Shown: in pieces, positions 12,225 to 14,696 of the stretch
Layout: each line of letters begins with the position of its first letter
Numbering within the stretch: the first letter of the stretch is position 1
IMG/VR virus record: IMGVR_UViG_2740892235_000017
Location: 1 to 16,117 of that record
Reading direction: 5' to 3' (one strand)
From: a virus
Lineage: Duplodnaviria > Heunggongvirae > Uroviricota > Caudoviricetes
Length of the DNA stretch: 16,117 nucleotides
Program-made: the position numbers and the translations under genes
Notes under the pieces: model-generated
Database searches by the model: none
Told to the model about the DNA's origin: nothing
The model's input: the letters and a program-made list of their open reading frames with translations, nothing else

Positions 12225-14696
12225 ATGAGTAAAATATTTATTTGCGCCGCCATTCCTGACGAACAGGCAATAAAAAACGAGGGCGCTGTTGCTGTGGCCA
12301 CAGCCATTGAAGCCGGTGATGAACGTCGCGCCCGCGCAAAATTTCACTGGCAATTCCTTGAACATTATCCGGCTGCTCAGGACTGCGCTTATAAATTTCT
12401 TGTCTGTGAGGATAAACCCGGTACACCCCGCCCAGCCCTCGACTCCTGGGATGCTGAATATATGCTGGAAAACCGCTGGGATGAGGCGTCTGCTTCCTTT
12501 GTCCCGGTCGAACCTGAATCAGATCCGATGAACGTCACTTTTGACAAGCTGGCCCCTGAAGTACAGAACGCTGTCATGGTTAAGTTCGATACATGTGAAA
12601 ACATCACCGTTGATATGGTGATTAGCGCACAGGAATTGTTGCAGGAAGACATGGCAACCTTCGACGGACATATCGTGGAAGCTTTGATGAAAATGCCAGA
12701 AGTTAACGCCATGTATCCGGAGCTTAAGCTGTATGCCATCGGGTGGGTTAAGCATAAATGTAAGCCTGGTGCCAAATGGCCAGAAATTCAGGCAGAGATG
12801 CGCACCTGGAAAAAACGTCGCGAAGCAGAACGAAAAGAAACCGGGAAACATACTTCTGTTGTTGAGCTGGCCCGCGCCAGAGTCAACCAACAGCACACTG
12901 AAAACTCAGCAGCAAAAATCAACCCTGTCACTACTGCCATTCGTCGCGAATACAAGCAGACATGGAAAACCCTGGATGAAGAGCTGGCTTACGCTCTCTG
13001 GCCTGGTGATATTGATGCCGGAAACATTGACGGTACCATCCATCGCTGGGCTAAAAATGAGGTTATCGACAAGGATCGCGAAGACTGGAAGCGTATCTCT
13101 GCATCAATGCGCAAACAGCCTGATGCGCTTCGCTATGACCGTCAGACTATTTTTGGCCTTGTTCGTGAGCGCCCGATCGACATTCACAAAGATCCCGTTG
13201 CACTGAACAAATACATCAGCGAATACCTGACGACAAAGGGCGTGTTTGAACATGAAGAAACAGACCAGAGCTCTGCTGATGCTATCCTGTCGTCAGCAGC
13301 ACAAACTGATCCAGTGGAGACGGCGGAATCCAATTCTCAAAAAAATGAAATCCTGGTGGAAGCTGAACCATCTGTAGAGCGTGAAGGACCGTTTTATTTC
13401 GTCTTTACCGATAAGGACGGGGAAAAATACGGCAGGGCAAACAAACTTTCTGGCCTGGACAAGGCGCTGGCTGCCGGTGGTACCGAAATCTCAAAAGAAG
13501 AATATTTTGCCCGAAAAAATGGCACATATACGGGCTTACAGCAAAATACAGATACCGCAGAAGATTCAGAACAACCAGAGCCGGTAAAAGTTACCGCTGA
13601 CGAAGTAAACAAAATTATGCAGGCAGCCAATATCAGCCAGCCTGACACCGATAAATTGCTTGCTGCATCACGTGGTGAATTTGTTGAAGGGATTAGCGAC
13701 CCGAATGATCCGAAATGGGTTAAGGGGATTGAAACCCGCGATTCTGTGAACCAGAACCAGCCCGAATCGGAACAAAACGACCAGAAAGCGGAACAAAACA
13801 GTCCAAATGCGTTACAAAACGAGCCAGAAACGAAACTGCCTGAACCAGAAGTGCAACAAGAACCGGAAAAAGTTTGCACCGCATGCGGTCAGACCGGTGG
13901 CGGCAACTGTCCTGACTGTGGTGCGGTGATGGGGAACGCAACCTACCAGGAAACATTCGATGAAGAGAATCAGGCTGAAGCTCAGGAAAATGATCCGGAG
14001 GAAATGGAAGGCACTGAACATCTGCACAAGGAGAACACTATCAGCGATCAGTATCACGCCAGCGATAATAAAACTGGCGAGACAGCAAATCCCTTAATTA
14101 AAGTGAACGGTCATCATGAAATCACATCCACCAGCAGGTTGTGGCACCATCTGATGATTGACCTTGAAACAATGGGAAAAAATCCTGATGCGCCAATAAA
14201 CGCTATAGCCGGTAAGTTTTTTGATCCGGCAACCGGAGAGATGGGGCCAGAATTCAGCAAAACTATCGATCTGGAAACCGCAGGCGGGGTCATCGATCGG
14301 GGCACCATTAAGTGGTGGCTGAAACAGTCACGCGAAGCACAATCCGCCATTCTGACCGATGAAATCCCGTTGGATGATGCACTGCTGCAATTCCGGGAAT
14401 TTATCGACGAAAACTCCGGTGAATTTTTTGTTCAGGTCTGGGGTAACAGTGCAACTTTCGACAACGTGATTTTACGCCGTTCATATGAACGGCAGGGGAT
14501 CCCCTGCCCGTGGCGTTACACCAATGATCGCGATGTAAGAACGATGGTTGCTCTGGGACTGGTGATGGATTTCGACGCAAGAACGACTATTCCATTCGAA
14601 GGTGAACGCCATAACGCGCTGCACGATGCGCGTTACCAGGCAAAATACGTTTCAGCCATCTGGCAAAAACTGATCCCGAGTCAGGCTGATTTTTAA
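12225..14696 (+). CDS. Large prophage protein (823 aa) with C-terminal DnaQ-like (DEDDh) 3'-5' exonuclease domain
   Basis: SD TGAGG upstream of ATG 12225. C-terminal region has Exo I-like MIDLETMG and Exo III-like [13 protein letters not shown]. An acidic low-complexity linker (about 13740..13860) and a CxxC-x7-CxxC motif ([16 protein letters not shown], about 13876..13923) precede it. Confidence 0.65.
   Translation: [823 protein letters not shown]

Follow-up and report, generated by a model that had tools for sequence, protein, structure and literature searches.

Which protein stands at the place of RecE in a lambdoid prophage that carries no annealase gene, and what could it do there? The question is raised by the viral record IMGVR_UViG_2740892235_000017 (Caudoviricetes), whose positions 1 to 16,117 were analyzed as one stretch of 16,117 nucleotides (hereafter the window). 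A first-pass annotation of this DNA had noticed an 823-residue protein at positions 12225 to 14696, where recE or exo would be expected in a lambdoid early-left operon. It had described an uncharacterized N-terminal portion of roughly 550 residues, an acidic linker, a pair of CxxC motifs and a C-terminal DnaQ-like exonuclease domain, with no bet- or recT-like gene between the repressor and the integrase.

The reading frame and its location hold up. The gene is a single ATG-started open reading frame on the plus strand (12225–14696, stop codon included). A Shine-Dalgarno-like GAGG can be read from the sequence at 12211–12214 of the same strand, 10 nucleotides 5′ of the ATG, and the gene order from the repressor to the exonuclease, xis and int matches the recE/exo position. 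An internal start at M644 was considered and rejected, as no Shine-Dalgarno sequence lies 5′ of this codon. Judged by its sequence, the protein is best read as a RecE with a swapped nuclease and not as an unrelated occupant of RecE's place, because its N-terminus is homologous to that of RecE and its CxxC pair and acidic linker are shared with K-12 RecE at approximately 80% identity.

Domain organization of the 823-residue protein

The only Pfam match of the protein is PF16473, the Rv2179c-like 3′-5′ exoribonuclease domain, at residues 641–813 (E = 4.6e-61). It scores 206 bits compared to a cut-off of 27 and covers profile positions 1–177 of 177. Rv2179c of Mycobacterium tuberculosis, the founder of this family, is a stand-alone bacterial exoribonuclease. 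We delimit the domain, which resembles both Rv2179c and T4 DexA, as residues 641–823 (14145–14693, plus strand). It contains the motifs MIDLETMG at residue 644, FDNVIL at 745 and HNALHDA at 796, and its catalytic residues are encoded by the plus-strand codons of D646 (14160–14162), E648 (14166–14168), D746 (14460–14462), H796 (14610–14612) and D801 (14625–14627). These five residues align with D7, E9, D119, H186 and D191 of T4 DexA (exonuclease A) and are conserved in most relatives.

DexA is also the nearest solved structure by sequence (PDB 8kel and 8ken; E = 4.7e-5 for 8kel in a single-sequence search). A profile search scored it at 3.7e-74, a value that is not independent because DexA itself is part of that profile. 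Rv2179c was absent from the results of the PDB sequence searches even at E ≤ 1, and it is therefore taken to be more distant than DexA. Unlike our protein, DexA is a stand-alone enzyme of 227 amino acids from a lytic phage; the identity is approximately 28%, and extra loops of DexA are missing from the 823-residue protein. An AlphaFold2 (AF2) model of residues 641–823 consists of three N-terminal strands followed by helices, with a predicted local distance difference test score (pLDDT) of 70–93, an arrangement that would be expected of an RNase H-like alpha/beta fold.

The first-pass annotation had further stated that the fold is not the PD-(D/E)xK fold of RecE or lambda Exo, and domain searches of the reading frame did not find a canonical RecE-type nuclease. 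Pfam gives no PDDEXK match, RecE is missing from the chains matched in the PDB, and BLASTP yields no alignment to residues 592–866 of Escherichia coli K-12 RecE. We conclude that the C-terminal domain is, as predicted from these matches, a DEDDh exonuclease of the Rv2179c/T4 DexA family with intact catalytic residues, and the sole recognizable catalytic domain of the protein. One relative of 752 residues (P0257) has a RecE-type first domain and a DEDDh domain with changes at two catalytic positions (K in place of E in the DxE motif, A in place of D in Exo II) and may represent a catalytically dead variant.

The description of the N-terminal 550 residues as unknown stands with regard to function, which is open in RecE as well. 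It does not stand with regard to origin, as the region shares homology with the N-terminal part of RecE and hence is not an orphan. From the alignments, the first 625 residues are assigned to a RecE-family scaffold. The NCBIfam model NF007259 (exodeoxyribonuclease VIII equivalog) matches residues 453–625 only, with 268 bits compared to a cut-off of 1269. BLASTP aligns residues 262–625 to residues 278–591 of K-12 RecE, and the alignment ends close to the start of the RecE nuclease domain, which extends from residue 564 or 606 to 866. Within the alignment, residues 474–625 are approximately 80% identical to RecE 455–591; this stretch takes in a conserved peptide motif, both CxxC motifs and the acidic tail. 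Residues 1–575, used as the query of an exhaustive HMMER search, yielded only 229 clusters at the level of 50% identity.

The AF2 model of residues 1–460 has a mean pLDDT of 85 and contains four confident units (1 to approximately 100, 105–205, 240–340 and 385–435) with disordered joins; comparison of this model to the PDB gave neither an annealase-like nor a nuclease-like fold. The first two units make up the N1 domain (residues 1–215; 12225–12869, plus strand), an alpha/beta part up to about residue 100 followed by a helical part at 105–205, which is of the YdfE type (phrog_5943). The third is the helical MID core at residues 240–345 (12942–13259, plus strand), which aligns with RecE 278–355 by BLASTP and is modeled with a pLDDT of 93–98. 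It can be aligned over 26 diverse relatives including K-12 RecE 235–375 (alignment A2), is common to all RecE-like proteins, and has the consensus TLDxEIAxAL..P.D.D...R.AK..I...EDWKRWS.ALR..P.IL.Y.R.TIF..IR.AP. The fourth is a small beta-hairpin/helix module at residues 385–437 (13377–13535, plus strand; pLDDT about 95 at 390–430), flanked by segments predicted to be disordered (346–382 and 439–460, pLDDT below 50).

Residues 441–640 are mostly disordered in the prediction as well (pLDDT mostly below 50). This stretch includes the segment 474–625 (13644–14099, plus strand), in which the conserved motif, an acidic low-complexity linker and the CxxC pair are found. Both linker and CxxC pair are thus present as the first-pass annotation had described them. 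The acidic parts are residues 506–549, with an isoelectric point (pI) of 4.05, and 571–640 (pI 4.46). The pair has the form CxxC-x7-CxxC (CTAC with C551 and C554, CPDC with C562 and C565; 13875–13919, plus strand) and resembles a zinc knuckle. Its four cysteines are kept in those relatives that have the segment, K-12 RecE included, and are missing from several DEDDh-type relatives. Zinc binding by this motif, where the AF2 confidence is low, may be supposed from the cysteine pattern.

Two alternative N1 modules occur among the long homologues in our domain map, namely the phrog_5943 type of the protein studied here and the RecE type, PF06630 (Exonuc_VIII), which has no match in our protein at E ≤ 1. 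An hhalign comparison of both N1 profiles gave a probability of 43% and an E-value of 2.5e-4, which is only suggestive of a remote homology between them. The K-12 Qin pseudogene ydfE (L024, 5079–5999) corresponds to residues 1–256 of the family at 90% identity and is cut by IS2. It is the only remnant in K-12; exoD of the DLP12 prophage was considered as another one and rejected, since tblastn found no similarity.

Exchange of the nuclease and the presence of recT

Related loci were gathered from genomes of other species and from phages by means of a seven-sequence subset of the MID alignment. In the domain map of the long homologues the same N-terminus is joined to four or five different C-termini. 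Where the scaffold ends in a PD-(D/E)xK domain, a recT gene confirmed by Pfam directly follows it in all seven loci (K-12 Rac, Salmonella phage SPN3UB, L010, L015, L017, L019 and L021). The DEDDh-type gene runs directly into xis and int. No homologue of RecT, Bet, Exo or Gam was found in any of the 74 DEDDh-type IMG/VR loci with a complete gene, the annealase probes being RecT and Bet only. A recT or bet gene next to the DEDDh type was also not found in the window, in phage Tritos, in Escherichia albertii and in Escherichia ruysiae, leading to none in approximately 80 cases in total. The C-terminal nuclease is exchanged as a cassette, and recT goes with the PD-(D/E)xK version only.

Hybrids have arisen both ways. 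The protein of locus L010 is 85–90% identical to ours through approximately residue 499 and then continues into a PDDEXK domain, followed by recT. The reverse combination is found in E. coli GCA_039763085.1 (P0143 at locus L106, 6001–8418), where the N-terminus of K-12 RecE (100% identity over 277 residues) is joined to a DEDDh end and recT is missing. The context of this gene is Rac-like with sieB, kilR and ydaE, which shows the swap in a Rac background too. The near-identical linker (residues 474–625) is the likely crossover point of the nuclease swap, as judged from the alignments.

The cassettes number at least four: two PD-(D/E)xK types with recT, the DEDDh type without recT, and at least one uncharacterized type with a Sipho_Gp157 gene 3′ of it. 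The latter C-terminus (C3; phrog_2489/7838, annotated as exonuclease) always has the Sipho_Gp157 gene, and not recT, as its 3′ neighbor. A further C-terminus, C4, corresponds to phrog_26058. These other C-termini have no Pfam match and belong to relatives with the same N-terminal scaffold, namely three loci from Pantoea/Erwinia (L013, 7365–9608; L014, 7341–9614; L016, 7341–9602) and P0126.

Compared to RecE of the K-12 Rac prophage (exonuclease VIII) and the Salmonella Gifsy-type RecE, the 823-residue protein therefore has the same position in the early-left operon, a homologous MID core and the same succession of N-terminal scaffold, acidic disordered linker and C-terminal nuclease. It differs in its first 215 residues, which are of the YdfE type and not of the PF06630 type, in its DEDDh domain, for which 3′-5′ polarity would be expected in contrast to the 5′-3′ polarity of the PD-(D/E)xK domain of RecE, and in the lack of a recT partner. 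The same two differences, no adjacent annealase gene and the opposite polarity predicted from family membership, set it apart from two-component recombinases such as RecET and Red alpha/beta in general, in which a 5′-3′ exonuclease acting on double-stranded DNA leaves 3′ tails.

Distribution, selection and genomic surroundings

Several E. coli chromosomes carry a gene, annotated as exonuclease (WP_000034484.1), that agrees with the DNA between 12225 and 14696 at 100% identity. Of 5426 complete E. coli genomes, 3534 (approximately 65%) have a copy that extends over 80% or more of the gene, with a median of two and a maximum of ten matching places per genome. Intact 823-residue orthologues occur in E. 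coli, E. albertii, E. ruysiae and the sequenced phage Tritos, and the gene is complete in 74 of 80 IMG/VR loci. The ratio of nonsynonymous to synonymous substitution rates (dN/dS) was calculated for orthologues of 87–90% identity; one very close pair was uninformative because of too few substitutions. The ratio is 0.17–0.23 for the whole gene, 0.08–0.12 for N1, 0.13–0.25 for MID, 0.20–0.39 for the linker segments and 0.11–0.20 for the DEDDh domain. The entire protein, and not the nuclease alone, is thus maintained by purifying selection, with values of 0.08–0.39 over all segments.

The family is catalogued under RefSeq names (3′-5′ exoribonuclease in some records of the protein), PHROG 2082 and the Pfam entries PF27430 and PF27432, which are precomputed on homologues. 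The nuclease-only module already appears in a survey from 2025 that covers 314 lambdoid phages (PMC12315714) and reports DnaQ-like 3′-5′ nucleases in Rec modules as well as “RecE-2” proteins without a nuclease domain. The protein architecture, the exchange that places a DEDDh domain on the RecE scaffold and the association of recT with one type of nuclease are not described in the available portion of the survey. Our literature search found neither an experimental study of the 823-residue protein, which is uncharacterized, nor a description of the scaffold and cassette logic.

The window represents the early part of a lambdoid prophage that resembles Qin and Rac. Its minus strand encodes Q, RusA, a DUF968 protein, an ORF6N protein, a DUF1627 protein, P-like and DnaT-domain replication proteins and YdaT, and also carries a cro-like gene. 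The leftward operon on the plus strand is headed by a cI-like helix-turn-helix repressor (9652–10152; Pfam HTH_3). Between it and a DUF1391 gene (10920–11072) a PaaA2 antitoxin/ParE toxin pair is located (10170–10651), which is not present in an otherwise 99.4% identical reference prophage covering 75% of the window. The small RNA DicF, encoded in the same operon as the exonuclease (11324–11375; Rfam RF00039, 61 bits), and dicB (11548–11736; Pfam PF05358, E = 7e-34) follow. Two tandem copies of ydfD (DUF1482; 11733–11990 and 11941–12129) precede the exonuclease gene. This duplication may be an assembly artefact, because a run of 10 N (11873–11882, a scaffold gap) breaks the first copy. The first gene 3′ of the exonuclease, with no recT between, is the excisionase gene xis (14761–15009; Pfam Exc), and the lambda-type integrase gene int (14987–16117; Pfam Arm-DNA-bind_1 and Phage_integrase) reaches the end of the window; all these genes are on the plus strand.

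In agreement with the first-pass annotation, Pfam searches of the reading frames of the whole 16-kb window, the interval from repressor to int included, gave no annealase of the RecT, Redbeta, Erf, Sak or Sak4 type, no lambda Exo and no Gam. A scan for promoters and terminators found nothing beyond the shuffled background and no convincing promoter specific to the exonuclease gene. Four RNAs exceed the Rfam gathering threshold: DicF, and on the minus strand sok (5132–5306) with a hok-type toxin near it, a C4 antisense RNA (6015–6099) and isrK (6125–6199).

Possible function of the exchanged nuclease

What could a RecE with such a nuclease do? The explanation we lean towards, with moderate confidence, is that of a modular RecE-family protein of the early-left operon, in which the PD-(D/E)xK nuclease and recT have been replaced by a DEDDh 3′-5′ exonuclease; this enzyme would need no annealase and would trim 3′ ends, the recombination being carried out by host RecBCD and RecA. 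Upon induction or in lytic growth, the protein would be made from the leftward transcript that the repressor controls. The scaffold is retained with its N1 domain, the universal MID core, the small beta module and the acidic linker, predicted to be disordered, with its motif and Cys4 knuckle. It may direct its nuclease to a target that RecE shares, which could be DNA ends or a partner from the host or the phage. The enzyme would be a metal-dependent 3′-5′ exonuclease acting mainly on DNA 3′ ends, which is suggested by DexA being the closest solved relative. It could trim 3′ single-strand tails, for instance to ends that RecBCD can use, or remove unwanted 3′-ended DNA. Recombination might be left to RecBCD and RecA since there is no annealase and no RecBCD inhibitor and since Chi sites are present.

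The window contains four Chi sites (GCTGGTGG) compared to 0.48 expected from shuffles: 2731 on the plus strand, and 6258, 9018 and 14128 on the minus strand, the last one within the exonuclease gene. Three of them are, by the orientation we infer, on the strand equivalent to the top strand of lambda. According to the 2025 survey, Chi-rich phages without RecBCD inhibitors are proposed to use host RecBCD, and the Tritos class has a nuclease, no single-strand annealing protein, no single-stranded DNA-binding protein, no anti-RecBCD function and 7–21 top-strand Chi sites (PMC12315714, Table 1). The surplus of Chi in the window fits such a class. The Tritos orthologue is 87% identical to our protein and is embedded in the same order of DicF, dicB, ydfD, exonuclease, xis and int.

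Several points weigh against this explanation. Four Chi sites in 16 kb are only about the density of the E. coli chromosome. Polarity and substrate, DNA or RNA, are deduced from membership in a Pfam family that is named for an exoribonuclease. Every folded domain of the protein is acidic (pI 4.6–6.5), which does not suggest direct DNA binding, and the function of the scaffold is open even in RecE. The annealase survey of the related loci probed RecT and Bet, and Erf and Sak4 were excluded by Pfam in the window only. The products of the dicBF operon act on the host, so that the position of the gene would agree just as well with a role directed at the host or in exclusion. Finally, 3′-5′ exonucleases of single-stranded DNA usually inhibit recombination and do not promote it, as stated in the survey (PMC12315714).

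Four other explanations have to be weighed. Of these an exclusion function comes foremost, though we regard it as rather unlikely: expressed from the prophage together with dicB and DicF, the protein would act as a superinfection-exclusion or anti-phage exonuclease that degrades incoming phage DNA containing 5-hydroxymethylcytosine (5hmC). The model for this is EcD (HREX), a stand-alone DexA homologue of E. coli that is reported to cleave 5hmC-containing T4 DNA, to spare DNA without the modification and to protect against T4 (PMC12153337, 2025). According to the same paper, Escherichia is the genus richest in bacterial DexA homologues, a set to which the 823-residue protein, being found in 65% of the complete E. 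coli genomes, probably contributes a large share. This protein also shares an operon with dicB and DicF, which likewise protect or alter the host. EcD is a DexA-family DEDDh exonuclease that starts at the equivalent of M644 (MIDTET compared to MIDLET). It lacks a RecE-type scaffold, however, and its primers encode MIDTET... and ...TIPETY, hence termini that differ from those of the 823-residue protein and mark EcD as a different one. The gene-specific part of the EcD reverse primer has one match in IMG/VR, in an unrelated contig without an exonuclease reading frame (L007); the EcD gene was probably codon-optimized. The residues proposed for 5hmC recognition in DexA, W152 and D169, correspond to T766 and A785 of our protein in a MAFFT alignment that is uncertain because of indels. 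D90, a tetramer contact of DexA that is lost in EcD, would be kept as D718 by MAFFT but aligns with A719 by HMMER and is therefore ambiguous. No PADLOC defence model matched, the gene lies 3′ of a repressor-controlled promoter with no convincing promoter of its own, and the RecE scaffold would be left unexplained.

An exoribonuclease that trims or degrades RNA 3′ ends, for instance those of the leftward transcript, of DicF precursors or of host RNAs, is in our view distinctly improbable. The description of PF16473, the name in some RefSeq records and the co-transcription with a small RNA speak for it. They are set against a closest solved relative that is a DNA exonuclease, the absence of Rv2179c from the PDB results mentioned above, the scaffold held in common with a DNA recombination nuclease and the position of the gene in a Rec module. 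The remaining two explanations are poorly supported. Very little probability attaches to a self-contained recombinase, whose annealase would be hidden in the N-terminal 640 residues and make a separate recT unnecessary. This part is large, conserved and of open function, and full-length RecE surpasses the nuclease domain alone in linear-linear recombination (PMC11611040). The same scaffold occurs, however, in RecE proteins that still need recT, its domains are acidic, 441–640 is predicted to be disordered, and the confident part of the structure prediction resembles no annealase. The least probable explanation, and one that is largely refuted, is that of a functionless remnant in a decaying cryptic prophage. 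It could draw on the truncated K-12 copy (ydfE, IS2), a fragmented locus in Shigella flexneri (L012) and many partial database entries, but all segments have dN/dS values of 0.08–0.39 and intact orthologues are widespread as given above.

The modular RecE-family protein without need for an annealase thus remains our preferred explanation. A broader reading, to which we give a rather low probability, is that the RecE-type N-terminus represents a portable scaffold for targeting. Nucleases of opposite polarity would be interchangeable on it and would all be docked to a single target, which could be DNA ends or a factor of the host. The DEDDh version could then define an annealase-free route of recombination or end processing via RecBCD and RecA, or it could be a nuclease for anti-defence or exclusion that the same scaffold delivers.

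Recombineering relies heavily on RecE/RecT, and the N-terminal two thirds of RecE have no known function although the N-terminal domain raises linear-linear recombination (PMC11611040). We report that this region is a conserved, selected and portable scaffold which in nature is coupled to nucleases that, by family, would be of opposite polarity. As the annealase gene accompanies the PD-(D/E)xK nuclease and not the scaffold, nature provides a swap experiment for the role of the scaffold. The protein also offers a concrete candidate function for the large class of lambdoid prophages without annealase and anti-RecBCD genes. If the reading as a portable scaffold is true, its study beside RecE would reveal the role of the first 600 residues of RecE. 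If the enzyme acts on incoming phage DNA as is reported for EcD, it would rank with the most widespread exclusion functions that prophages carry in E. coli.

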